From a virus (taxonomy: Duplodnaviria; Heunggongvirae; Uroviricota; Caudoviricetes): a DNA stretch of 64,000 nt. Shown here one piece after another: positions 23,245-41,915 of this stretch (its first letter is position 1; every line of letters begins with the position of its first letter). Both the position numbers and the translations under genes were made by a program. The stretch lies in IMG/VR virus record IMGVR_UViG_3300010162_000009; one strand, given 5' to 3'. The notes beneath the pieces are model-generated. The model saw only the letters and a program-made list of their open reading frames with translations, did no database searches and was not told where the DNA came from.

Positions 23245-23760
23245 ATGTTACGAAAAATTAGAGAAGGTGTGTTTGAAACAAATAGTAGTTCAGTTCACAC
23301 AATAACAATAAGAAAAAGATCAAAAGATATTGATACTATTTTAGTGTCGGATAATATTTTATATCCAGATGTTTTTCATGAATCTGGTACTCCTGTAGAT
23401 CATTTTCTTGGTCCAGGAACACAATGGACTGCTAATTCAATAGCAGAAAAAGCGGCATTATTATTTTTGTATTTGAATCATATTAAAGATTTAGGTACAC
23501 CAGATTACGATATTGAAAAACTTAATGAAGCAATTGATTATCTTAAATCAAAATTACCATATAATAATATTGTAATGGGAGACAAGTACATTGAAACATA
23601 TGAAGGACAAACTTCTCTACCGTTTGATTTTTCACATATGTTCGATGAATACGAAAAAGTATTATTTGAAGATATTAAGAAAAAACTTCTAGATCCGTTT
23701 TTAGAAGTTATTTTAGACGAAGATAGATATATTGTTGTTTGTCAGGGTCAAGATTACTAA
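23245..23760 (+). CDS. FETNSSS-motif protein 1
   Basis: MLRKIREGVFETNSSSVHTITI; body similar to 32186..32740. Confidence 0.85.
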   Translation: MLRKIREGVFETNSSSVHTITIRKRSKDIDTILVSDNILYPDVFHESGTPVDHFLGPGTQWTANSIAEKAALLFLYLNHIKDLGTPDYDIEKLNEAIDYLKSKLPYNNIVMGDKYIETYEGQTSLPFDFSHMFDEYEKVLFEDIKKKLLDPFLEVILDEDRYIVVCQGQDY

Positions 23761-27323: not shown

Positions 27324-28511
27324 ATGGCAACACAACCCATCAAGAAACACATACTTGAGAACAATCCGTATATTCAACAACATGCTGAAACAGAATATAT
27401 ATTAATTGTTGATGGGAACGGATTGTTAAAAGGTAGTATGATAGAAACCCTAAAAAACCCTAATGGTGTTAGGATTGGGTGGGTTATGAATTTTTTATGG
27501 AAAATAAAAATCTTATTACATAAACGATCATTTTCAAAAGTATTTTGTGTATGGGATGGACAAAATAGTGGTATATTAAGATATGACCTATATCCAGACT
27601 ACAAGAAAGTTAGAAAAAAAAACTATTCCGAATATGATAGAAAAATTAACGCTTTTGTGTTTTCTGTATTGGAAAGAGAAAGATTAAAAAAGGAAGAATT
27701 AGAAAAACAAAAAAACAAAGAAAAATTTCTTCAAACCCAACAAGTAAAGGAACAACAAAACGAAGATTTTGAAAAAACAAAACTTGTTATACAAGAATTG
27801 TTGGAATATTTATTTATTCGTCAAATACAAGACGATGTAGAAGGTACAGAAAGCGATGATATTATCGCCCACATAGTATTAAATAAACTTCCAAACCAAA
27901 AAATATATATCATAACAGGCGATAGAGATATACACCAACTCATTTCAGAAGATGTTGCAATATACAACTACAAGAAAAAAGAAGTATATCATACCGGTAA
28001 CTATATGGAAAAATTAGGAATGCCGGTAGAAAATGTATTAATCGAAAAAATTCTACGTGGTGATACTTCCGACAGTATAAGCGGTGTAAAAGGTTTAGGT
28101 GAAGTAACAATAAAAAAATATTATCCAGAATTATATTCTAATATAATTACTATTGAAAAAATAGTTGAAAAAACTAAATTACTATTAAATGAAACTTCCA
28201 ATAAAAGGGAGTTAAATGTGTTTAATGAAATATTAAAAGAATATGAAGATGGAACTCTTGATTTGAGAGAAAAAATCATTAATCTAAAAAAACCCTTATT
28301 AGGTAAACAAATAAGGGATGAACTGAACGATCTAATAGATTCTCCTCTAGACCCTAATGACAGAGAATTTGATAATGTTTATCAAATAATACTTAGAGAA
28401 GAATTAACAGATCTGCAAGGAAACAAATTTAGTTCGTTTTTCATCCCATTTAAACAAGTTATCGAAAGGGAAAAATTATTTTATAAAAAAAGTGGTTACA
28501 CTGAAATATAG
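27324..28511 (+). CDS. rnh: 5'-3' exonuclease / flap endonuclease (T4 RNase H-like)
   Basis: LIVDGNG, CVWDG, ESDDIIA, ITGDRD and H3TH GDTSDSISGVKGLG motifs. Confidence 0.9.
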   Translation: MATQPIKKHILENNPYIQQHAETEYILIVDGNGLLKGSMIETLKNPNGVRIGWVMNFLWKIKILLHKRSFSKVFCVWDGQNSGILRYDLYPDYKKVRKKNYSEYDRKINAFVFSVLERERLKKEELEKQKNKEKFLQTQQVKEQQNEDFEKTKLVIQELLEYLFIRQIQDDVEGTESDDIIAHIVLNKLPNQKIYIITGDRDIHQLISEDVAIYNYKKKEVYHTGNYMEKLGMPVENVLIEKILRGDTSDSISGVKGLGEVTIKKYYPELYSNIITIEKIVEKTKLLLNETSNKRELNVFNEILKEYEDGTLDLREKIINLKKPLLGKQIRDELNDLIDSPLDPNDREFDNVYQIILREELTDLQGNKFSSFFIPFKQVIEREKLFYKKSGYTEI

Positions 28512-30622: not shown

Positions 30623-30632
30623 TAAAAAATTG

Positions 30633-30708
30633 TAGCCGATGGGGGACTCCAACCCAAACCATCCTTCGATCCGTAGTCGAAAATTCTATGCTGTTAAACT
30701 AATCGGCC
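30633..30708 (-). tRNA. tRNA-Arg(ACG), atypical
   Basis: GGCCGAT/ATCGGCT acceptor and TTCGA-CTACGGA-TCGAA anticodon arm; D and T loops non-canonical; CCA not encoded. Confidence 0.65.
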
Positions 30709-31531: not shown

Positions 31532-31603
31532 TGTGGGGTGATGCAGTGGCAGCAATTTGGGCTCATAACCCAAAAGTCGTAGGTTCGAATCCTACCCCCG
31601 CTA
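31532..31603 (+). tRNA. Initiator tRNA-fMet(CAT)
   Basis: 1:72 mismatch, three consecutive G-C pairs in the anticodon stem (TTGGG-CTCATAA-CCCAA), canonical TTCGAAT loop; CCA not encoded. Confidence 0.9.
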
Positions 31604-31610
31604 CAAAGTT

Positions 31611-32093: not shown

Positions 32094-32168
32094 GGTCCTT
32101 TAGCTCAGTTGGTGCAGAGCATCTGACTCATAATCAGGGGGTCGGGGGTTCAAGTCCCTCAAGGACCA
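32094..32168 (+). tRNA. tRNA-Ile2(CAT, lysidine type), elongator Met not excluded
   Basis: Canonical cloverleaf GGTCCTT/AAGGACC-A; anticodon arm TCTGA-CTCATAA-TCAGG; C4-G69 and C5-G68 as in Ile2. Confidence 0.85.
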
Positions 32169-32185
32169 CTAAAATTTTAAATAAT

Positions 32186-32740
32186 ATGAAAAGGGTAGTT
32201 AGACCAGAGTGTTTTGAAACAAATAGCAGTAGTGTTCACAGTTTGTCGGTAATATCAAAAAGTAGCGCAAATGTTTTGTGTGAGTTGGTAAAAGACAATG
32301 TACTTTATCCGGATGTTTTTTATAATACGGTAAAGCGTTTTCATGGGGATCATGGAATAGATTATATCTACGATGAAGGTAAGAGGTGGTATGCTGTTAC
32401 CAGAGATGAAAAAGCGGCGTTGTTGTTTTTGTATCTGAATTACGTAAAACTTGCATTTGAAGGAGATACAGATTTCGCCAGCGACTCCTTTGATGAAAAT
32501 ATGATTTTAAATGCTATTGAAATAGCAGAGGAATTATTACCATATGATAGCATACATTTTGGTGAAAATTCAATATCACCTTTTCAGGAAGATAAGGGTG
32601 AAATGATAATCAATATTGGTGATGTTCTTAGCAAGTATGGTTCTAAAGACCAAAAGGAATTAGAAAGAATTATCGGTGAGTTTTGTACGCTCATATTAGA
32701 TGATGATAAAATTCTTGATTGTGTTCAGGGGGAAGGTTAA
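32186..32740 (+). CDS. FETNSSS-motif protein 2
   Basis: Start re-called to ATG 32186 (track start lies inside RNA genes): MKRVVRPECFETNSSSVHSLSV. Confidence 0.85.
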   Translation: MKRVVRPECFETNSSSVHSLSVISKSSANVLCELVKDNVLYPDVFYNTVKRFHGDHGIDYIYDEGKRWYAVTRDEKAALLFLYLNYVKLAFEGDTDFASDSFDENMILNAIEIAEELLPYDSIHFGENSISPFQEDKGEMIINIGDVLSKYGSKDQKELERIIGEFCTLILDDDKILDCVQGEG

Positions 32741-32751
32741 TTTTAAATAAA

Positions 32752-32994
32752 ATGGGTTTAGAAGAAGAATTAAGAGTAGAGTATAATACTCGTAGTAGAA
32801 GAAACAACACAATTAAGTTTGTGTTAGGAGATAAGAATGTCAGTGAAATGACATTGAGAGAATATTTTGCCGGGGTTGCGATGAGCGGATCTTCGGCGAT
32901 TGATGGGGCAGACGATGTTAATAGTATTGCTACATGGTCAGTAAGAATGGCGGATGCGTTGTTGGTGGAACTTGAAAAACCTGTAAAAATTTGA
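32752..32994 (+). CDS. Hypothetical protein of the widespread phage MTLRDYFA family
   Basis: MTLREYFAGVAM...ADALL; start re-called to ATG 32752. Confidence 0.7.
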   Translation: MGLEEELRVEYNTRSRRNNTIKFVLGDKNVSEMTLREYFAGVAMSGSSAIDGADDVNSIATWSVRMADALLVELEKPVKI

Positions 32995-32998
32995 AATA

Positions 32999-33319
32999 AT
33001 GATTATAGTAACAGAAAACGGATTGTACGAAGTTTACAGTCAAAATAATGATGGTAGTAATTTCTATTATTTATGCAAAGAAATACTCACACACAAACTT
33101 CACGAAGGTGATACGAAGTTTGTTGCTAGGGGGATACCAAAACCAATCATATTGGGGGTTCCTGACGGTTTGGATAGACACCGCCCATATTTTATAAACA
33201 AAGAAGAAATTATTTTTTTCTTTGATGAAGGTAAAGATGATAAACGATCAGCACTTTCGGAAATGGCGTATAAAAACTGGAAGGAATTTTTTCCGGAATT
33301 ATATTTCGTCGTTAAATAA
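32999..33319 (+). CDS. Hypothetical protein
   Basis: 106-aa ORF. Confidence 0.7.
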   Translation: MIIVTENGLYEVYSQNNDGSNFYYLCKEILTHKLHEGDTKFVARGIPKPIILGVPDGLDRHRPYFINKEEIIFFFDEGKDDKRSALSEMAYKNWKEFFPELYFVVK

Positions 33320-33349
33320 TAATAGCGTTGCGTTCAAATAAATAATAAC

Positions 33350-33754
33350 ATGAAAAAAGTAGTTAGAAAAGCGGTTTTTGAAACCAACAGTAGTAGTGTA
33401 CACAGTATAAGTATTGTACCTGAAAAGATATATAATTTATTCAAGACAGGACAATTACTTTGGGATAGAGATAAAAAGGTATTAGTAGAGTTGTCGTCTA
33501 TACCACAACTTGAACCATCAACCATATGTGGTGTGTGTGGTAAACAGTTCAACGAAGGGGATAACTTTTGTTCCAGTTGCGGAGAAAGAATTGACATGGA
33601 ATATCGAATCAAAGTTTTAACGGATTCCAAATATAATTCTTATGATAATTTTGGGGTATCAAATGGTAGAAGTTATGAAACCTTTGAACACAAACACACA
33701 ACAGAGTTGGGAGAAACTCTTGTTGCGTTTGGATATTATGGATCCGATTATTGA
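33350..33754 (+). CDS. FETNSSS-motif protein 3 with zinc ribbon
   Basis: MKKVVRKAVFETNSSSVHSISI; CGVC...FCSSCG. Confidence 0.85.
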   Translation: MKKVVRKAVFETNSSSVHSISIVPEKIYNLFKTGQLLWDRDKKVLVELSSIPQLEPSTICGVCGKQFNEGDNFCSSCGERIDMEYRIKVLTDSKYNSYDNFGVSNGRSYETFEHKHTTELGETLVAFGYYGSDY

Positions 33755-33777
33755 AAATTTTTTAAAAAAATAATAAC

Positions 33778-34704
33778 ATGAAAAAAAGAATTTTATTAGG
33801 ATCATATGTTAACGGAAACACCTCTGTTGAAATTTACGATGACGGTACAAAAATCCGCACTACGGAGGATGATGAGTTCATTTCGGAGTTTCCAGAGTCG
33901 ATAGATCTAAAAATTACAAATGTCTGTGACAGAGGTTGTTTATTCTGTCACGAGGACTCAAAACCGAATGGAAAACACGCGGATATTCTTAATCCGAAGT
34001 TTTTGGAAACAATTAGACCATATAGCGAGATTGCGATTGGCGGTGGCAATTTATTGTGTCATAATGATATAGAAGAGTTCTTAACAAGGATGAGAGAACA
34101 GAAAGTCATTTGCAATATCACAGTAAATCAACAGCATTTCATGGAAAGTTATGGTAGGATTAGATTATGGTCTGAAAGTAAAATGATATACGGAATAGGA
34201 GTCTCATTAGATTATAATAACCCTGTTTCATCGGAATTTATTGGTATGATACAATCATTACCGAATGCTGTTATTCATATCATTGAGGGGGTAATTTCTC
34301 GTGAACAAATGTTTGGTTTGACCAATAAGAGATTGAAAGTCTTGATACTTGGTTACAAAATGCTTCGTCGTGGCATGAAGTACTTTGACGAAAAGGTATT
34401 GGAAAATAAAAAATGGTTAAAAGAAACAATAGCGGTTTATATCAATAGCAGTATGTTTCAGAACATATCCTTTGACAACTTGGCAATTGAGCATCTTGAA
34501 ATCAAAAAGATATTACCGGAAGAATTGTGGAATGAGTTCTATATGGGCGATGACGGACAACATACCATGTACATTGATTTAGTGAATAAACAATATTCAA
34601 GATCAAGTACATCCACATTACGTTTTGATATTACAGATGATATTGTGGAAATGTTTTCGGTTGTTAAATCTGATGAACATCAATGGCATATGTTAATGTA
34701 TTAA
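33778..34704 (+). CDS. Radical SAM enzyme
   Basis: CDRGCLFCH (CxxxCxxC), IAIGGGN, NITVN; no C-terminal Cys-rich SPASM domain. Confidence 0.9.
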   Translation: MKKRILLGSYVNGNTSVEIYDDGTKIRTTEDDEFISEFPESIDLKITNVCDRGCLFCHEDSKPNGKHADILNPKFLETIRPYSEIAIGGGNLLCHNDIEEFLTRMREQKVICNITVNQQHFMESYGRIRLWSESKMIYGIGVSLDYNNPVSSEFIGMIQSLPNAVIHIIEGVISREQMFGLTNKRLKVLILGYKMLRRGMKYFDEKVLENKKWLKETIAVYINSSMFQNISFDNLAIEHLEIKKILPEELWNEFYMGDDGQHTMYIDLVNKQYSRSSTSTLRFDITDDIVEMFSVVKSDEHQWHMLMY

Positions 34705-34716
34705 TTTTTTAATAAT

Positions 34717-35268
34717 ATGAAAAGAGTAGTTAGAACAGGGGTTTTTGAAACCAACAGCAGCAGCATGCACTCAATAAGTATCAATGGTAGTGATATGATA
34801 TTGAAATCTGAAAGAGAATATATTTTCCCTTTAAGTGAAGATTTTATTGTTCCGACAGATGATTCGGATATAATAATAATACCATTGGAAGATTGTGAGT
34901 ATGGTTGGGGATATGAATACATTACAGATCCGTTTGAAAAATTGAAATATCTTGTGATGATGGTTGTAGAAACCGAATGTAAGAATGTTACATGTATTAA
35001 CGAAATATATGAAACAGAAGGATTCAAATTAATTCAGGCGGAAGTACCACACACTATTGTAATTCTTGATGATTCGTTAGAACAACACTCGTACACCAAC
35101 AAGGAAAATGATGTTGTGTATTATTTATCTCACAGCGGATATATAGATCATCAAAGTCACGAGGATTTTTCAAGTCTGCAAGATTTTTTGAATGATGCAG
35201 ATGTTAATGTAGAAGAATTTTTATACAATAAACAACTTGCAGTTATCATGGATAACGATAACCACTGA
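34717..35268 (+). CDS. FETNSSS-motif protein 4
   Basis: MKRVVRTGVFETNSSSMHSISI; YGWGY..EKLKYL, GYIDHQS, terminal DNDNH. Confidence 0.85.
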   Translation: MKRVVRTGVFETNSSSMHSISINGSDMILKSEREYIFPLSEDFIVPTDDSDIIIIPLEDCEYGWGYEYITDPFEKLKYLVMMVVETECKNVTCINEIYETEGFKLIQAEVPHTIVILDDSLEQHSYTNKENDVVYYLSHSGYIDHQSHEDFSSLQDFLNDADVNVEEFLYNKQLAVIMDNDNH

Positions 35269-35315: not shown

Positions 35316-35750
35316 ATGAAAAAGGTAAAAAAGTGTTATGTAGTTGAAAAATATTTAACCGATGAGGAATGTCCACCTCTTTACATATTAGGTATTTATA
35401 GTACCTCAGAAAAAGCAATAGAGGCAACAAGAACAGCGGTAAAAGAGTTAAATTCATGGGTTGATGATTTACCAATACCATTAGATTTTTTCATTGAACA
35501 TATTAATGAACTTGATATGAGAGATGATCATCATTATCCTTTTCATTTTTTTTGGAAAAATTATTTAGGGTATACTGAAAAAGATTGGCAAGAAACTTAT
35601 TGTTTATATTACAGACGTAGTTATCTTGGTAGATTGTCCGTTTCTGTTTCGGAAAGGTATATGGATGAATATACCGAAGAGTGGGGAGAACGATTTTTTA
35701 CTGAGATAATCGAACCAATCGAAAAAATCAAAGGTTTGGAAAGTCGTTGA
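35316..35750 (+). CDS. Hypothetical protein
   Basis: 144-aa ORF, convergent overlap with the polyvalent protein gene. Confidence 0.75.
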   Translation: MKKVKKCYVVEKYLTDEECPPLYILGIYSTSEKAIEATRTAVKELNSWVDDLPIPLDFFIEHINELDMRDDHHYPFHFFWKNYLGYTEKDWQETYCLYYRRSYLGRLSVSVSERYMDEYTEEWGERFFTEIIEPIEKIKGLESR

Positions 35751-38700
35751 TGAACGGAAATATAGCAGTATCAGAATTAGCAATTTTTGCGGTACCATAA
35801 AGATATTTACCCTTTCTAATAGCATCTAAATATCTTGTTACAGAATTTTTTCCTAAAACAATATATGTTTGTCCAGAAAGCGTAAATTTTCTATCAGGAA
35901 TATCTTTTACTACACCTTTTATTGTTTTTATATTAATGTAACTACCGGTTTCTGGTGGTAATTCTAATATATAATAAAGGTTTTTTATTTTGTTTTTTAT
36001 ATCATTGATTACTAATGTCACATTTTCCCCATTATAAATATAGTTGCGAATAATATAGAAAGACCAATGATCTGAACCTCTTGTAGCATATTTTGATTCT
36101 TCACATGGTGGCGTTTGAAAATATTCTGAAGGAAGTGTTTCTCCTCTCTTAGAAGATACTTGGTAATAACAAACTAAATTATCGTTATCATCATACCATT
36201 CAACAACAGTTCCGGTTTTATCAAATCTATTTGTTTTACTATACACACAATTACTCATATAATCAGGTGCACCATTAGGATCATAGTTAAATATGTAAAT
36301 ATCATTTTCTTTTTGTTCATCATACGGTATTTGAAGTACCTCATTTAATATTTTTCTTATTCTATCCACACCCTCAGTTAACATTGTCTGTTCTACTTGA
36401 ACATTTTCCAATCTTTCCGGGATTTCGATATATATTTCATTTTCAGAAAAATTATTACCATTGAAACTAGTTTCATTAGTGTTATCTTCTATGTATCTAC
36501 TAATGGTTTCTACCCAATCAACAGCATCAAATGGACAATCTGCCTTTAATATAGTATTACCCGAATTTCCCCATATAGAATCTCTGAAACGAACAGCACT
36601 ATCATGACTGAAAGACCATGAATTACCTAACAACTCATCTCTTTTAATATCTGATAATTTATCTACTCTTATACTACGCCATACAGGAAACGGATTTTCA
36701 AATTTAGCAAAATATTGACATATAGAAAGTATTTTTGTTATCATTTGTTTTTCACTCTCAAATGGATAGTTACCATCTTCATCACCATTATCGTCATCAG
36801 AACCAGGATATAAACCATCATATGGTCCGGTATTTCTAATATAATCAATAACATCTTCTACTGTTATTCCTAATTTATTTATAGATTGAATAACATCCAC
36901 TTGTCTTTCGGACATTATAAACCTTTTTGGTTTACTATTTTTTGATTCTGCAAGATTATTATCTTCTATTTGATTTCCATTTAAGTCAAAGACAATTCTC
37001 TCATTTTTATAATCATTATAATAACCAGACATGCTTTTGTAAACAATATATTTGTTTTTTATATCATCTGGTAAAATATCATAATATTCTATTGGAATTA
37101 TTATATTGTTGTTTTTATCTATCACACCTTTTCTTTTACTTTCATCGCTAACAAAATAAACATTGAAGTTATTATAAGGCTCTATTCTATTATATATAAA
37201 TGGAATTATAACATTTCCTTTTACATCAACAACCCCTCTTTTTCCGTTACCATCCAAACTTATAAATTCACCTGGTGTTAAACCATCAGAGTATTTAGAA
37301 TACCCAAATGGCTTTATAACTTCATTATTTAAATTTATTATTCCCTCTTTATTTAAGTCATTTCTTACACGATAAGTATTATCTTTTTCCGGTAGAACGC
37401 CGAGATACTTTATTGGAATAACTATCTCACCGTTTGAATCGAGTACCCCAACAAGATTATTTTGTTTTACACGATACATACCATTTGAATCATATACAAT
37501 CGTATCGTATTCTGGTGGTATTTTAATACTAGTTTTTAGATTTATAATACCAACCTTATCTGTTCGTTGTTTTACGCGAAACAACATACCCTCTACGTCA
37601 ATATTTTCTATTTCTGAATAAATTAGAGGAATAATTTCCTCATCATTTATGTCTATAACACCCTTCCCTTCATTACCGTGTACTATAAATTTATTACCAC
37701 CTATTGGTATTATATCATCATAATACGATGTGAGTTCTTCTTCTTGTCCATTAATAATAACATAACCATCATCATTACTTACCAAATATGTGTTATTATA
37801 TAATAGTTCAATACTACTATATGCATCATAAAAAATTGGTGCACCATTAACATCTAAAAGCATCGCACTATCATTATATTCTCCTGAAACCACAAATGTC
37901 CCGTCTTCAAGTTCAGATATATTATCATATGATAAACCTAACATTTTTTTAACACCAACTCTTTCTTCAAAGAAATCAAATAAACCGCTTGTAGCATTAA
38001 TTTCATCCATAACAGGTTTATATATACTTTCATCAGTTTCATCCATAAATTGCTCACTTTCAAAATGGAATTGATATTTTTCATTGTATCTTTTACCTAT
38101 TACAATGTAAAGAGGACCATTTTTATTGTAATGGTCAAACATGTTATTATTTTCAGCAGCAGTACACCACTGTGTCCCTTTACCATAATATTTTGCCGCC
38201 TCTTCTGTTTTAGGATGAATCACAACAAAGGCATCATCCTCATATAATTTATCAGCACCCTCAACTTTTGTGTGTTTTATTTCTTCACCTTTTGAAGCAA
38301 ATTCTTCACCTTCTAAATAGGGTCTAATAACCGAATATAAACTACTTAATGATATATGTGAATTAATATTATTATTTTCTAATTTACCGGATTTCGATAA
38401 TTTGTCAAATACAGGTAGATATTCTTTTGCTTTGTATAAATCTTCTAATTTTAGTTGTGATTTAACTCTTTTTTTGTCTGTGTATAACCACAACAACCAT
38501 TTTGCATATTTACCCAACTTATCTCTATCTAAATTTGTTGTAACTGTGTCGGCAGAGGCAATCTGTTTGAAAACATCTTCTGGAATATCAGGATAATATG
38601 TTTTATGAATATCCTTTGCAGACATTTCAAACAAATAGTTATAATCTTCACCTACTACTTCTTTAACTAACGATTCTACTGTTCTAAAACGCCCTGACGT

Positions 38701-41700
38701 ATGAGCAATCGCACCAAGTTTTGGTGTTATTTCCTTATCCGATTTTGCAACTTCAGTTGCCCTTCTTAATTCTTCATCAACCCATTTCATCAGTTTATCC
38801 GCCGATATTAACCATGCGTCTTTATCCTGTTCTTCACCACTCATCTGACCGGTATAATTATCTCTCCAATCAACAAGGGTGTACATCCATTTATATGTTA
38901 TTTTTCCTTTTCTTTCAATAATATTTTGAAGTCGTTTATAATTTTTACATAATGTGTATTTAGAAACATCTTTAACTTTATCATATTTAGATTTCAGTTC
39001 AAAATATAATTCTTCTGGTATTTGAAATGTTCTATGTTTTAATTTTTGATTATCTTCGGATACTATTTCACCTATATTAATATCATCACCATTTCTTGCC
39101 GCTAATTGTTGCAGGTGTTGATCAACCAATTTTTTTTGCTCTTTACCTGTTTTGAATAAATCAGGTGCTAATTTTTGAGTTTCGTTAAAAACCATATCTT
39201 GTATATAGGTTTTACTTTCCATTGCATTTCGTGTTAATACATTTCTGGTAGTAATAACGTTTGATAGTTTTTCCATCATATCACGTAGTTCCATTCTTTG
39301 TGCACCAGACATACCAGACTGGTCTACTTGGTCTAATATAAAGTTATAAATATAAACCTTACTTCTCTGTGTTGTTAACCTTGTTTTAATAATATTTGCA
39401 GCATCATTTATTTTTCCAACGTATTGACTAATAAAACTCAAATTCACACTAGTATCACCAAGAATATACTTCAATATCAAAAAACTCTCAGTAGCACCTT
39501 TTGTTTTGTTATTAATAACATCAATAAGTAAATCAATTTTATGTTCATCTATTTCTTCCATTCTATCGTCAGGATCAGCATTATCATCATCTTCTTCAAA
39601 GGAAATATCGCGCAAGGTATCTGCATTATCGGCAGCGGTTTTTTTCTGTTGTTTAAGAGGTGATAATTGAATTTCATTCAAATAATCTTGAATGGTATCT
39701 TTAATTGTATTTTCATGCGTTTTTTTTAAACCATCTTCACTTTTTTTCCAATTTTCAATATATTCGTTAATAGTATCTCCTCTTATTGGTAATCTTAAAT
39801 CTTCATCAAAAAAACTATTATCTCTTGAATTGAAAATTATATTTTTTTCTTTTGATCCAATATAACGAAAATTATCATATTTAACTTCATAAAAACGACA
39901 TTTATAATCACAATTTTCCTTATTATTTCTATAATCATAAGAATTAGTAATACGTATGGGTTTTACCGTATCAAATAGAAATTTTCCATTTGGATCAATT
40001 ATATTATCACAATTATCTTTTACGTTTCTACATAATGTATAACCATACTTATCCGTATCTGGTGTTTCATCATGATTTTCAAACGGAATCCAGTTATTAA
40101 ACATCATTGTTCCATCTGTTTTTCCAATATTATATGTTTTGTCTAAAAAAAGAATAAACGTTTTACTTACTTCATTATATCCACTATGTGATGTAAACCC
40201 ATGTTCATATTCAGGAAACAACAAAGAATAACAACCGCTGTTCGGATCAATAATATTACCCTTATCATCGCCAATTAGAACATTAAAACGTTTATTTTTA
40301 TAAACAATCCACCATACTTCATCTAACCCTTTTATTCTATTTAATCGTATATCACCATGATATAGATCATCTATTTTAAAAAGTTCATTCAAATTATCTT
40401 CTCTAAAATATTTTAATTTTTCTTTTTTAATGTGTAATTCTTCTTCTGAATATGGTTTAAAGACACTATAAAAATTTCTACCAATCAAATCACTTATCTG
40501 CTCCGTGTTCATACTATTGTCGTTTCCCCCATTGTCATGGTTATATCTTGTCGTACAAGTGTTCAGCGAACCATCATCGTTAATACCAACCGCAATCATA
40601 CTTAATCCATAATCATCTAATGGATTACCCTCCTCTTTACTTTCTTCACCAATGTTTTCCCAACCCTCGTTTAATAGAAAATAAAATCGACCCAAACCGT
40701 CTTTGGTGTATGTGTTATAGTTATTTTCAGATTGAGCAACACACCATGGTGCATATTCATAATATTCACGAGCATCTTCATAACTGTCAATGGGGATTAT
40801 TGTGTATCTATTGTTTTTATCATTATATCGTTTTTGATTTATTTTATTTTTATCTGTTTCCAAATGTTGTTGACCAACTGTTTGAAAACGATTAACCAAT
40901 TCTTCTGCTGATAAACCATTCAAATCTTCGTTATAATCATCATGCCCTTCTAAAAATTTTAATGATTTATTTAAATCGTTAATTATAGTATAATCTTTTA
41001 GTTGATTAGATACATACATTCTCACAATTCCTAACATGTATTTACATTCTGCAACTCTGGAATTAGAAATGTTAGTTCTAATATTATCCAGAATTCTCTG
41101 TGTTTGTTCTTGAGACATTTCATGAACATCTTTAAGGTATTTTCTTGCTTTGGATAGGTTTTTACTTTCTTTACTTTCGGACAATATATCTTTAACAATG
41201 TCAGAAATTTTTAATGTGGTTTCATCTAATGTTTCTTCATTCATTTCTATACCTATTTTGTATTTTTCACTACCGGGTTCCGCACTACCTATTACACCAT
41301 GGTATGGACTGATTACTGAACTTAATTCTATAATATTTTGTTCTGCTAACGATTTGTAAAAATATATTGCTTTTCGTTGTTTTTTATTTTTATGTGAATT
41401 TAGCCACACTTTGAATATTTCAATATCTACTTCGGTTATATATTTAAATCCATTCCACCCTTTTTCATAATTTGATAAATATGCTTTTTTTGCTTCTTTT
41501 GAATTATTGAAACCCATCATAACTTTGGTTTCATCAAATTCGTTTCCTTTGTATTGGTCAATACAGAATATTTTATCAGAATCAAGATTATCACCAATAA
41601 AAACATCAACAGCATCACCATCTATCGCTTTACTTTGGACAAAATAACCATATGTGTTATTCATCTTGGTTTTCCATTCCCTACCAGTGTCGTCTACTCC

Positions 41701-41883
41701 CTTTCGATAACTACCCTTAGGGTTTTCTATTGCAATTTCAAAACCATGAATATTTACCCTACCCTTTTTGTAATTACCTGCTTCCTTCTGTCCTTGGGTT
41801 GGATTTGTATTGGTTTCCTTTTCCGCTTTTTTTAGTTCTTGCTTGATGGTTTCTTCTATGATTTGACTGATATTCATGAACAT
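35728..41883 (-). CDS. Large polyvalent protein: InPase-like domain, two WC-motif domains, WG-like repeats, ADP-ribosyltransferase-like domain
   Basis: QKEAGNYKKG..IAIENPKGS..YGY..DGDAVDVFIG; APWCVA and TQWCTAA; repeated GxI(D/N)xxGxxIIP; VWRS..SWSF..ENE. Confidence 0.8.
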   Translation of the reverse strand: MFMNISQIIEETIKQELKKAEKETNTNPTQGQKEAGNYKKGRVNIHGFEIAIENPKGSYRKGVDDTGREWKTKMNNTYGYFVQSKAIDGDAVDVFIGDNLDSDKIFCIDQYKGNEFDETKVMMGFNNSKEAKKAYLSNYEKGWNGFKYITEVDIEIFKVWLNSHKNKKQRKAIYFYKSLAEQNIIELSSVISPYHGVIGSAEPGSEKYKIGIEMNEETLDETTLKISDIVKDILSESKESKNLSKARKYLKDVHEMSQEQTQRILDNIRTNISNSRVAECKYMLGIVRMYVSNQLKDYTIINDLNKSLKFLEGHDDYNEDLNGLSAEELVNRFQTVGQQHLETDKNKINQKRYNDKNNRYTIIPIDSYEDAREYYEYAPWCVAQSENNYNTYTKDGLGRFYFLLNEGWENIGEESKEEGNPLDDYGLSMIAVGINDDGSLNTCTTRYNHDNGGNDNSMNTEQISDLIGRNFYSVFKPYSEEELHIKKEKLKYFREDNLNELFKIDDLYHGDIRLNRIKGLDEVWWIVYKNKRFNVLIGDDKGNIIDPNSGCYSLLFPEYEHGFTSHSGYNEVSKTFILFLDKTYNIGKTDGTMMFNNWIPFENHDETPDTDKYGYTLCRNVKDNCDNIIDPNGKFLFDTVKPIRITNSYDYRNNKENCDYKCRFYEVKYDNFRYIGSKEKNIIFNSRDNSFFDEDLRLPIRGDTINEYIENWKKSEDGLKKTHENTIKDTIQDYLNEIQLSPLKQQKKTAADNADTLRDISFEEDDDNADPDDRMEEIDEHKIDLLIDVINNKTKGATESFLILKYILGDTSVNLSFISQYVGKINDAANIIKTRLTTQRSKVYIYNFILDQVDQSGMSGAQRMELRDMMEKLSNVITTRNVLTRNAMESKTYIQDMVFNETQKLAPDLFKTGKEQKKLVDQHLQQLAARNGDDINIGEIVSEDNQKLKHRTFQIPEELYFELKSKYDKVKDVSKYTLCKNYKRLQNIIERKGKITYKWMYTLVDWRDNYTGQMSGEEQDKDAWLISADKLMKWVDEELRRATEVAKSDKEITPKLGAIAHTSGRFRTVESLVKEVVGEDYNYLFEMSAKDIHKTYYPDIPEDVFKQIASADTVTTNLDRDKLGKYAKWLLWLYTDKKRVKSQLKLEDLYKAKEYLPVFDKLSKSGKLENNNINSHISLSSLYSVIRPYLEGEEFASKGEEIKHTKVEGADKLYEDDAFVVIHPKTEEAAKYYGKGTQWCTAAENNNMFDHYNKNGPLYIVIGKRYNEKYQFHFESEQFMDETDESIYKPVMDEINATSGLFDFFEERVGVKKMLGLSYDNISELEDGTFVVSGEYNDSAMLLDVNGAPIFYDAYSSIELLYNNTYLVSNDDGYVIINGQEEELTSYYDDIIPIGGNKFIVHGNEGKGVIDINDEEIIPLIYSEIENIDVEGMLFRVKQRTDKVGIINLKTSIKIPPEYDTIVYDSNGMYRVKQNNLVGVLDSNGEIVIPIKYLGVLPEKDNTYRVRNDLNKEGIINLNNEVIKPFGYSKYSDGLTPGEFISLDGNGKRGVVDVKGNVIIPFIYNRIEPYNNFNVYFVSDESKRKGVIDKNNNIIIPIEYYDILPDDIKNKYIVYKSMSGYYNDYKNERIVFDLNGNQIEDNNLAESKNSKPKRFIMSERQVDVIQSINKLGITVEDVIDYIRNTGPYDGLYPGSDDDNGDEDGNYPFESEKQMITKILSICQYFAKFENPFPVWRSIRVDKLSDIKRDELLGNSWSFSHDSAVRFRDSIWGNSGNTILKADCPFDAVDWVETISRYIEDNTNETSFNGNNFSENEIYIEIPERLENVQVEQTMLTEGVDRIRKILNEVLQIPYDEQKENDIYIFNYDPNGAPDYMSNCVYSKTNRFDKTGTVVEWYDDNDNLVCYYQVSSKRGETLPSEYFQTPPCEESKYATRGSDHWSFYIIRNYIYNGENVTLVINDIKNKIKNLYYILELPPETGSYINIKTIKGVVKDIPDRKFTLSGQTYIVLGKNSVTRYLDAIRKGKYLYGTAKIANSDTAIFPFINDFPNL

Positions 41884-41915
41884 ATTTTTGTATAAATAGA
41901 ATTAAATGATTTCTT

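Follow-up and report, generated by a model that had tools for sequence, protein, structure and literature searches.

A radical SAM enzyme and an N-terminal tag shared by unrelated phage proteins: a candidate two-component maturation system

A stretch of DNA of 64,000 nucleotides from a jumbo phage of the Caudoviricetes (IMG/VR record IMGVR_UViG_3300010162_000009), called the window below, encodes a radical S-adenosylmethionine (SAM) enzyme together with small proteins of unrelated body that all begin with the same short tag. In its general form the tag reads M-K-x-x-[IV]-R-x-x-V-F-E-T-N-S-S-S-x-H-[ST] and is register-locked at the N-terminus. The reading that we hold to be somewhat probable is that of a self-contained two-component phage system, in which a dedicated radical SAM maturase acts on the N-terminal tag of unrelated small clients. 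Radical SAM enzymes acting on a recognition motif within a protein are a known kind of system, and no published description of the present module was found in a literature search; what is new is the family itself, the register-locked N-terminal tag carried by unrelated folded proteins, and the lack of auxiliary clusters in the enzyme.

The tag and its distribution

Exactly four open reading frames (ORFs) of the window, all on the plus strand (Table 1), start with M-x-[RK]-x-[VI]-R-x3-F-E-T-N-S-S-S-x-H-[ST]-[IL], Phe being residue 10 and Glu residue 11, and a six-frame regular-expression scan of the 64 kb found no further in-frame occurrence. The invariant N-terminal tag of four genes, as described in the original prediction that had been made from the DNA alone, was thus confirmed both in the ORF list and in the scan. 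The same is true of the predicted layout: the radical SAM gene (33778-34704) lies between two tagged genes, from which it is separated by gaps of 24 nt and 12 nt, and about 1 kb separates it from the end of a third tagged gene upstream. The fourth (gene 23245) is located about 10 kb upstream. The window belongs to a 135-kb phage record (37% complete according to CheckV) that harbors seven tagged genes and a single radical SAM gene. When the seven tag regions of this record are aligned as DNA, synonymous codons vary for Thr (ACA/ACC), Asn (AAT/AAC), Ser (AGT/AGC/TCA/TCC), and His (CAC/CAT); the tag is therefore conserved as a peptide and not as a DNA repeat, as had been anticipated.

A tag-only profile of 34 columns, for which the N-terminal segments of 63 diverse members were used, matched 7,421 representatives of 50%-identity clusters (E ≤ 1e-3) among 1.84 billion proteins. 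The Glu of the tag is residue 10 or 11 in 146 of the 150 top matches, and three of the four exceptions have a wrongly called start, an internal Met lying at the correct distance; P0317 and P0318, two top matches that carry two tags, are neighboring tagged genes merged in one gene call. Over 104 unique tags, numbered relative to this Glu, conservation reaches 99-100% at R(-5), E, T, N, S, S, S, and H(+7). Position -1 is Phe in 92% and Trp in 5%, and position -3 is Gly in 51%, no Gly being invariant in the tag logo. Among the most divergent tags checked, all positions vary except for the first two serines (Ser14 and Ser15): the tag of Rhodothermus phage RM378 reads L-S-T-N-S-S-S-S-H, and some fusion proteins carry E-T-S-S-S-S-A-S-A or E-I-N-S-S-Y.

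Linkage of tagged proteins and enzyme

Tagged proteins and enzyme co-occur in a near-obligate manner, in both directions. In viral loci anchored on a tagged protein, a radical SAM gene is found within 10 kb and on the same strand in 71 of 80 cases, usually adjacent. Five apparent orphan loci were tested: four have the enzyme elsewhere on the contig, including both 100%-complete records, while the remaining one lies on a fragment rated 38% complete. Conversely, one to three tagged ORFs are present in 79 of the 80 viral loci anchored on the enzyme. The objection that the motif might often occur without the enzyme, which had been raised along with the original prediction, thus falls. A regular-expression scan of named phages gave the same arrangement, with five tagged ORFs adjoining the enzyme gene in Lak-A2 and four in Lak-B7; in Microcystis phage Ma-LMM01 the tagged gp130 is paired with the enzyme gp128, and in RM378 the tagged p106 with the enzyme p108.

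The module is also encountered in prokaryotic assemblies. A survey of one genome per species (185,579 genomes) returned 143 stretches with the pattern, mostly on gut metagenome-assembled genome (MAG) contigs and in a few isolates, and tagged ORFs are present in 71 of the 80 genome or MAG loci that were kept. The pair is also carried by a contig of Eubacterium plexicaudatum ASF492, possibly a prophage. Two of the contigs (L233 and L245) were binned with Methanomassiliicoccaceae archaea and carry the enzyme gene together with one to four tagged genes (...FETNSSSEH...); unless the binning is wrong, the module may occur in archaeal viruses too.

When the ORFs of the viral loci were clustered across 53 lineages of the enzyme, two module families recurred, in 51 and 43 lineages, and the next family reached 9. 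Neither a conserved third partner gene nor a linked protease or transporter was found across these lineages. Because no third family recurs, the module is a self-contained pair. Its neighbors are genes commonplace in phages, of the replication, nucleotide, or RNA-repair type, with Thg1, RNA ligase, dUTPase, and NAD synthase in the vicinity in some lineages.

Classes of client bodies

Without the tag, at least five body classes can be told apart among the 158 tagged ORFs of the first collection, and three of them are represented in the window. Class 0, exemplified by gene 34717 and by gp130 of Ma-LMM01, has an alpha/beta body with a GYIDHQS motif and a C-terminal DNDNH motif. For gene 34717, 328 relatives were retrieved at E ≤ 1e-3, and the positions invariant in their alignment are R6, E11-T12-N13-S14-S15-S16, H18, G63 (also listed as G63-W64), Y78, Y142-I-D-H-Q-S147, and D181-N182. 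Class 1, which includes gene 33350, is short and consists of the tag, an E-Y-x-x-W-x-x-G motif, a variable acidic linker, and a conserved C-terminal ...ETF...YTT..G..VAFGYYG.D hairpin; in gene 33350 the linker holds a zinc ribbon (Cx2C...Cx2C) with weak Pfam matches, the best at E 6e-4 and under the gathering cut-off. To class 2 belong the paralogues 23245 and 32186, along with two further copies in this genome. In gene 32186 the tag is followed by LYPDVF, by a helix of the form W.A.T.DEKAALLFLYLN, and by an acidic C-terminal half. The bodies had been described beforehand as two related helical ones, one with a zinc ribbon, and one with GYIDHQS, and this description holds. The tagged proteins of the window are acidic, with pI values of 4.3-4.8 in classes 0 and 2 and of 5.9 in the class-1 gene.

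No homology between the classes is detectable outside the tag. Tagless class profiles align with an hhalign probability of at most 5% between classes, and when the tag is included in global mode the score comes almost wholly from it; between classes 0 and 2 there is then an extra weak signal over a W...(D/E)xK(L/A)xxL helix. As judged from these profiles, unrelated bodies sharing one tag is the pattern of one enzyme with many clients. The clients, of 90-330 aa overall, have bodies that are confidently folded in models. The class-0 model (predicted local distance difference test score, pLDDT, 84.7; predicted template-modeling score 0.82) leaves residues 1-13 unpacked at a pLDDT below 50, with its first strand starting at residue 16. 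Given the unrelated tagless profiles and the unpacked residues 1-13, the bodies do not form one detectable fold in which the motif would be a normal strand of the core.

Database searches assigned these bodies to no characterized family. Apart from the sub-threshold zinc ribbon of gene 33350, the tagged proteins of the window match no family in Pfam, NCBIfam, or PADLOC, and against PHROGs there are weak matches to phrog_28997, a family of unknown function. The longer tagged proteins and the bodies of fusion proteins likewise have no family match, with the exception of the Tad2-like case described below. A tblastn search of gene 34717 against 50,697 phage records gave no match, although the regular expression finds the tag in Lak, Ma-LMM01, and RM378; the search is negative because BLAST is too insensitive for such bodies. 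The class-0 model matches no solved structure (best Foldseek hit in the PDB at E 0.2; best VIA-align Z of 4.1 over 48,161 chains), and the class-0 profile has no match among PDB sequences. In the AFDB clusters and the Atlas, the neighbors of the model are uncharacterized viral proteins, with one Atlas cluster (261 aa, 62 members) bearing PF11195. Motif I of the HAD proteins, the Toprim E...DxD motif, the flavodoxin phosphate loop, the HxS/T motif of 2H phosphoesterases, and the RSSY motif of LipA were considered and rejected, as the registers do not fit and there is no fold match.

The radical SAM enzyme

The enzyme of the window carries the cluster motif CxxxCxxC at C50, C54, and C57, all three invariant in 37 aligned relatives. 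Its match to the Pfam family Radical_SAM (PF04055) is weak (E 2e-4, under the gathering score), as are those to NCBIfam. In a 90%-clustered protein collection 6,426 relatives were retrieved at E ≤ 1e-5, nearly all of 290-300 aa. Those in known phages include proteins of the Prevotella Lak megaphages (44% identity), Ma-LMM01 (39%), and RM378 (26%). The AlphaFold2 model (pLDDT 91.4) harbors a three-stranded N-terminal beta mini-domain (residues 1-34) followed by the alternating beta/alpha barrel of radical SAM enzymes. The partial TIM-barrel fold and the glycine-rich SAM motif are both present, with a Foldseek probability of 1.00 to many radical SAM structures, and E84, A86, and G88 of the AIGGGN region are conserved among relatives.

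The nearest folds in the PDB according to Foldseek are SuiB (E 2.7e-8), CteA, SkfB, EpeE, BlsE, anSME, and ChlB, and the best matches to peptide modifiers range from E 2.7e-8 to 1e-4 with template-modeling (TM) scores of 0.5-0.65. The best matches of the model are thus mostly peptide- or protein-modifying enzymes. Cysteines for auxiliary clusters were not found: C50, C54, and C57 are the only conserved cysteines among the 37 aligned relatives, and the two extra ones of the window enzyme (94 and 112) are non-conserved. Pfam and NCBIfam scans gave no match to an RRE, the recognition element of maturases acting on ribosomally synthesized and post-translationally modified peptides (RiPPs), no dedicated structural comparison having been made.

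A homologue on one viral contig (L043:9166-10008) contains 12 in-frame TGA codons where relatives have Gly, for instance in the AIGGGN motif, which points to genetic code 25 (TGA=Gly) in this phage, the code of Absconditabacteria/Gracilibacteria. The module also occurs on a MAG contig labeled Absconditabacterales (L185).

Predicted complex of enzyme and tag

A controlled complex prediction was carried out with the alignment of the radical SAM enzyme, a 4Fe-4S cluster, SAM, and an alignment of the class-0 client, along with three controls. It reached an interface score (ipSAE) of 0.88 (0.88, 0.91, and 0.79 in individual runs) versus 0.02 for the best of the three controls. In a calibration, 58 of 80 solved complexes reached that mark, as did 2 of 110 mismatched pairs; these counts are a rough guide since the calibration was made without riding ligands or user-supplied alignments. 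The runs have at least 60% of their contacts in common, and the pLDDT of the partner is 73-75. We know of no comparable complex, so that a score drawn from the memory of the model is unlikely.

The confident interface involves residues 1-20 of the partner and no others. On the enzyme side it comprises residues 20-34, 84, 86, 111-115, 138-141, 163-167, 187-191, 229-235, 252-259, and 276-277, which cover most of the invariant positions of the family. In the model, tag residues 2-9 lie against residues 20-34, which form a hairpin with the invariant D22-G23-T24, and F10 and E11 of the tag contact residues 84, 111, 113, 138, 139, and 163 inside the barrel. The tag is predicted to occupy the barrel lumen, where a substrate would sit. 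Two lineages show changes on both sides: the one with E-T-S-S-S-S-A-S-A tags has N234T, S231A, and N117H in the enzyme, and in a fusion lineage with shortened leaders the hairpin residues D22 and G23 differ. Judged from these sequences, the co-variation is compatible with the interface, each case being a single evolutionary event.

Fusions and inteins

Natural fusions, about 16 among the longer relatives of the enzyme, all have the order tag-body-radical SAM and keep the tag at residue 1. In two further clusters (P0284 and P0285; locus L172:2118-3962), a P-loop kinase domain related to AAA_33/KTI12 (E 5e-22) precedes the radical SAM domain; the middle region of this fusion has an H-H-D motif and no Pfam match, and two tagged genes are located directly upstream.

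Another fusion concerns a client. A class-0 tagged protein (L041:9998-10783) carries a C-terminal domain resembling Tad2 (PF11195, E 1e-7, 32.8 bits for a cut-off of 25). It is present in eight loci (L041, L025, L028, L033, L036, L037, L046, and L060), whose contigs belong to related phages of about 43-200 kb, several of them near 68 kb. None of the four tagged proteins of the window matches PF11195 in a Pfam scan.

Finally, about fifty homologues of the enzyme (within P0241-P0299, 620-705 aa) are interrupted by inteins of the LAGLIDADG/Hint type. In the 13 examined, the intein is inserted either directly after C57 or in the AIGGGN region (about residues 88-97). Inteins are typically found in catalytic motifs of important enzymes.

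A proposed dedicated maturase and its alternatives

The original prediction had a single radical SAM enzyme recognizing the motif of several clients, modifying it, and thereby activating them. Recognition of the shared tag is supported by the near-obligate co-occurrence, by the N-terminal position of the tag in fusions, and by the controlled docking of residues 1-20, whereas covalent modification of the tag and activation of the clients are steps that we infer. Residues 1-9 of the tag would serve as a minimal leader, forming a beta strand paired with the N-terminal hairpin of the enzyme (residues 20-34) and setting the register. This pairing would thread F10-E11 and the following T-N-S-S-S-x-H into the lumen of the TIM barrel, beside SAM and the [4Fe-4S] cluster, where the 5'-deoxyadenosyl radical would abstract a hydrogen from a tag residue. 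Ser14 and Ser15 are the best candidate targets because they are conserved in every divergent tag checked. The outcome would be a post-translational change needed for client function. Possible products include a serine oxidation of the anSME kind, a crosslink like that of three-residue cyclophanes, for instance within F-E-T, or an epimerization.

The biological role is possibly counter-defence or nucleotide-related, given the Tad2-like fusion in one client lineage and the position of the module among replication and nucleotide genes. Taken together, this location, the acidity of the clients, their multiplicity, and the Tad2-like fusion loosely hint at host takeover or counter-defence.

Several points weigh against a dedicated maturase. 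The enzyme lacks the SPASM/twitch auxiliary clusters used by its closest structural relatives as well as a conserved cysteine able to act as a hydrogen donor, and for an enzyme without these each of the candidate products would be unusual. Fusions of an enzyme with its substrate are less usual than fusions of subunits. The class-0 bodies have invariant polar motifs of their own (IDHQS and DNDNH), so that the body might catalyze, with the tag forming part of a composite site. The complex score expresses the confidence of a model, obtained with our own alignments and riding ligands, and the docked tag could equally be the permanent arm of a subunit. Finally, one of the 80 viral loci anchored on the enzyme (L115) has no tagged ORF within 10 kb under genetic codes 11, 4, or 15.

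The main rival builds on some of these same points. It holds that enzyme and tagged protein are two parts of one enzyme, the tag being a permanently docked arm that completes the radical SAM site through its E, T, N, S, S, S, and H residues, and the bodies being interchangeable specificity subunits, or adaptors, for small-molecule, nucleotide, or RNA substrates. The tag-body-radical SAM fusions are of the subunit type, the invariant polar residues of the tag are typical of catalytic or phosphate-binding residues, and the class-0 bodies have their own invariant polar pocket. A nucleotide or RNA flavor is given by the kinase fusion and by the Thg1, RNA ligase, dUTPase, and NAD synthase genes near some modules, and the docking prediction is equally compatible with such an arrangement. 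However, the modeled tag fills the position of the substrate in the barrel lumen, class-1 partners, which amount to hardly more than tag, variable acidic linker, and hairpin, would make poor substrate-binding modules, no conserved third gene or pathway stands beside the pair, and the nearest folds of the enzyme are those of peptide modifiers. We regard this explanation as unlikely, while giving it serious weight.

The other explanations are weaker. The enzyme could be an activase akin to those of glycyl-radical enzymes, placing a stable protein radical in the tag, with the clients then acting as radical enzymes. The logic of one activase with several clients and the client loop taken into the barrel both recall PFL-AE (the activating enzyme of pyruvate formate-lyase, PFL) and NrdG/NrdD, and the docking prediction fits. 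Nevertheless, this is improbable: the tag has neither a conserved glycine (see the partial conservation at position -3) nor an RVxG-like motif, to our knowledge no stable radicals on Ser, Thr, or Asn have been reported, the class-1 clients are too small for enzymes, and the module is found in phages of aerobic or oxygenic hosts (Rhodothermus and Microcystis), where stored radicals would be fragile.

Still further from the data, and very improbable, is a propeptide for capsid targeting of the T4 type, in which the N-terminal 10-11 residues up to V-F-E would be cut off after the Glu and the proteins packaged. The prohead protease of T4 cleaves according to the rule L/I-x-E, which the V-F-E of the tag recalls; with its locked register and a hydrophobic-x-Glu at residues 9-11, the N-terminus is compatible with it in form only. 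Such targeting explains neither the near-obligate linkage and fusion to a radical SAM enzyme, nor the invariance of TNSSSxH past the putative cut, nor the conservation of the tag across sources so distant from one another as Lak, Ma-LMM01, RM378, and contigs of archaeal MAGs, and the late-promoter-like box CTATTTAT is found upstream of no gene of the module. As for autoprocessing, by which a Ser-Ser site would cleave itself to yield a pyruvoyl or N-terminal-nucleophile (Ntn) enzyme independently of the radical SAM protein, an alternative already named in the original prediction, its single favorable point is that Asn-Ser-Ser-Ser resembles the serinolysis sites of pyruvoyl enzymes; it found no support, since no similarity to pyruvoyl or Ntn families was detected by sequence or fold, the tag sits on unrelated bodies, some of them too small for enzymes, and the radical SAM enzyme is left unexplained, so that there is hardly any chance of its being correct.

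Comparison with known systems

A dedicated maturase of this kind would be closest to the RiPP maturases, since SuiB/SuiA, CteA, SkfB/SkfA, EpeE, and ChlB/ChlA provide the best structural matches of the enzyme model. As in these maturases, a conserved N-terminal segment is predicted to serve for recognition, through strand pairing in the model, and a reaction segment to lie beside SAM, and several paralogous 'precursors' are encoded beside one enzyme. By contrast, the phage enzyme has no SPASM/twitch auxiliary cluster and no RRE match within the limits given above; in the model, recognition appears to fall to its 34-residue beta mini-domain. Unlike short precursor peptides, the clients are folded proteins of 90-330 aa from several unrelated classes; the presumed reaction site falls within the conserved part, and what varies is a whole protein. 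Finally, the module is phage-borne, with no linked protease or exporter.

The anaerobic sulfatase maturases anSME and AtsB resemble the proposed system in that one radical SAM enzyme serves many clients and acts on a short motif near the N-terminus of folded proteins, which in anSME is a Ser/Cys motif turned into a catalytic residue; the fold search also returned anSME itself (4k37, E 1e-4). The differences are that the (C/S)xPxR motif is missing from the four window proteins, that these match no sulfatase Pfam family or alkaline-phosphatase fold, and that the phage enzyme lacks both auxiliary clusters. Like PFL-AE and NrdG, it is a small single-cluster radical SAM enzyme encoded next to its partner, a segment of which it takes, here by prediction, into its barrel; NrdG/NrdD, too, occur in phages. 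Unlike in glycyl-radical systems, however, neither the tag logo nor the class alignments contain an RVxG-type glycine motif, the site is N-terminal and not near the C-terminus, and the clients are small, acidic, and without a match to a solved fold. As to Tad2 (Thoeris anti-defence 2; PF11195/DUF2829), the link consists in the C-terminal domain fused to a class-0 tagged protein in one phage group, a domain that the tagged proteins of the window lack; being a fusion in one lineage only, it is silent on the chemistry of the tag.

Genomic context in the window

The module is placed within a replication and nucleotide-metabolism region of the phage. Table 1 summarizes the features of the window and of the surrounding record. 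The true start of the second tagged gene is the ATG at 32186, 16 nt past the end of the second tRNA-Met gene; a GTG-initiated ORF from 32060 was rejected as an artefact that merely runs through this tRNA gene. A scan of the 31-36 kb region showed promoter-like sites at chance level and seven terminator-like sites versus 1.7 expected, and a clear operon boundary was not found. A late-promoter-like box, CTATTTATA, is located at 41891-41899 on the minus strand, just upstream of the start of a gene for a 2051-aa protein (35728-41883, minus strand). This protein combines WG beta repeats with an InPase domain at its N-terminus (PF18823, E 2.5e-49), as is typical of the 'polyvalent' proteins of phages.

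Table 1. Genes of the tag-enzyme module and other features of the window and of the 135-kb phage record
Feature	Position	Strand	Basis
Tagged partner, class 2 paralogue, 171 aa, pI 4.75	23245-23760	+	ORF list, regular expression, class alignment
5'-3' exonuclease / FEN-type nuclease	27324-28511	+	PF02739, E 1e-22
tRNA-Arg(ACG)	30632-30708	-	tRNA gene
tRNA-Met(CAT)	31532-31604	+	tRNA gene
tRNA-Met(CAT)	32094-32169	+	tRNA gene
Tagged partner, class 2, 184 aa, pI 4.5	32186-32740	+	ORF list, class alignment
Tagged partner, class 1, 134 aa, pI 5.9	33350-33754	+	ORF list, class alignment
Radical SAM enzyme, 308 aa	33778-34704	+	PHROG 16999 'Fe-S oxidoreductase', E 2e-46; CxxxCxxC
Tagged partner, class 0, 183 aa, pI 4.3	34717-35268	+	ORF list, class alignment
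Three further tagged genes of the record, outside the window	C1:85446, 85970, 102215	-	tandem class-2 pair and one class 1

Significance

Few radical SAM enzymes modify whole proteins: the glycyl-radical activases, those that mature sulfatases, and a small number with ribosomal or methanogenic proteins as their targets. The family described here is very large and phage-specific; its enzyme clusters number in the thousands, and its clusters of tagged proteins at least 7,400. The phages that carry it have hosts among Bacteroidota, Bacillota, cyanobacteria, Rhodothermus, and candidate-phyla bacteria with TGA=Gly, and some contigs were binned with methanogenic archaea. Up to seven clients per genome, inteins in two catalytic motifs, and the fusion to an anti-defence domain argue for an important task in large phages. 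A further-reaching proposal, which we put forward tentatively and with some doubt, is that a minimal single-cluster radical SAM enzyme installs a modification or a protein-derived cofactor in the tag and so arms a changing repertoire of effectors, some of them for counter-defence, across phages and across domains of life. As the system is compact, with two genes and a 20-residue tag, it is directly testable and could yield a new enzymatic chemistry for protein tagging. If true, this proposal would add a new class to the protein modifications made by radical SAM enzymes, and effectors of large phages would be activated according to a new principle.

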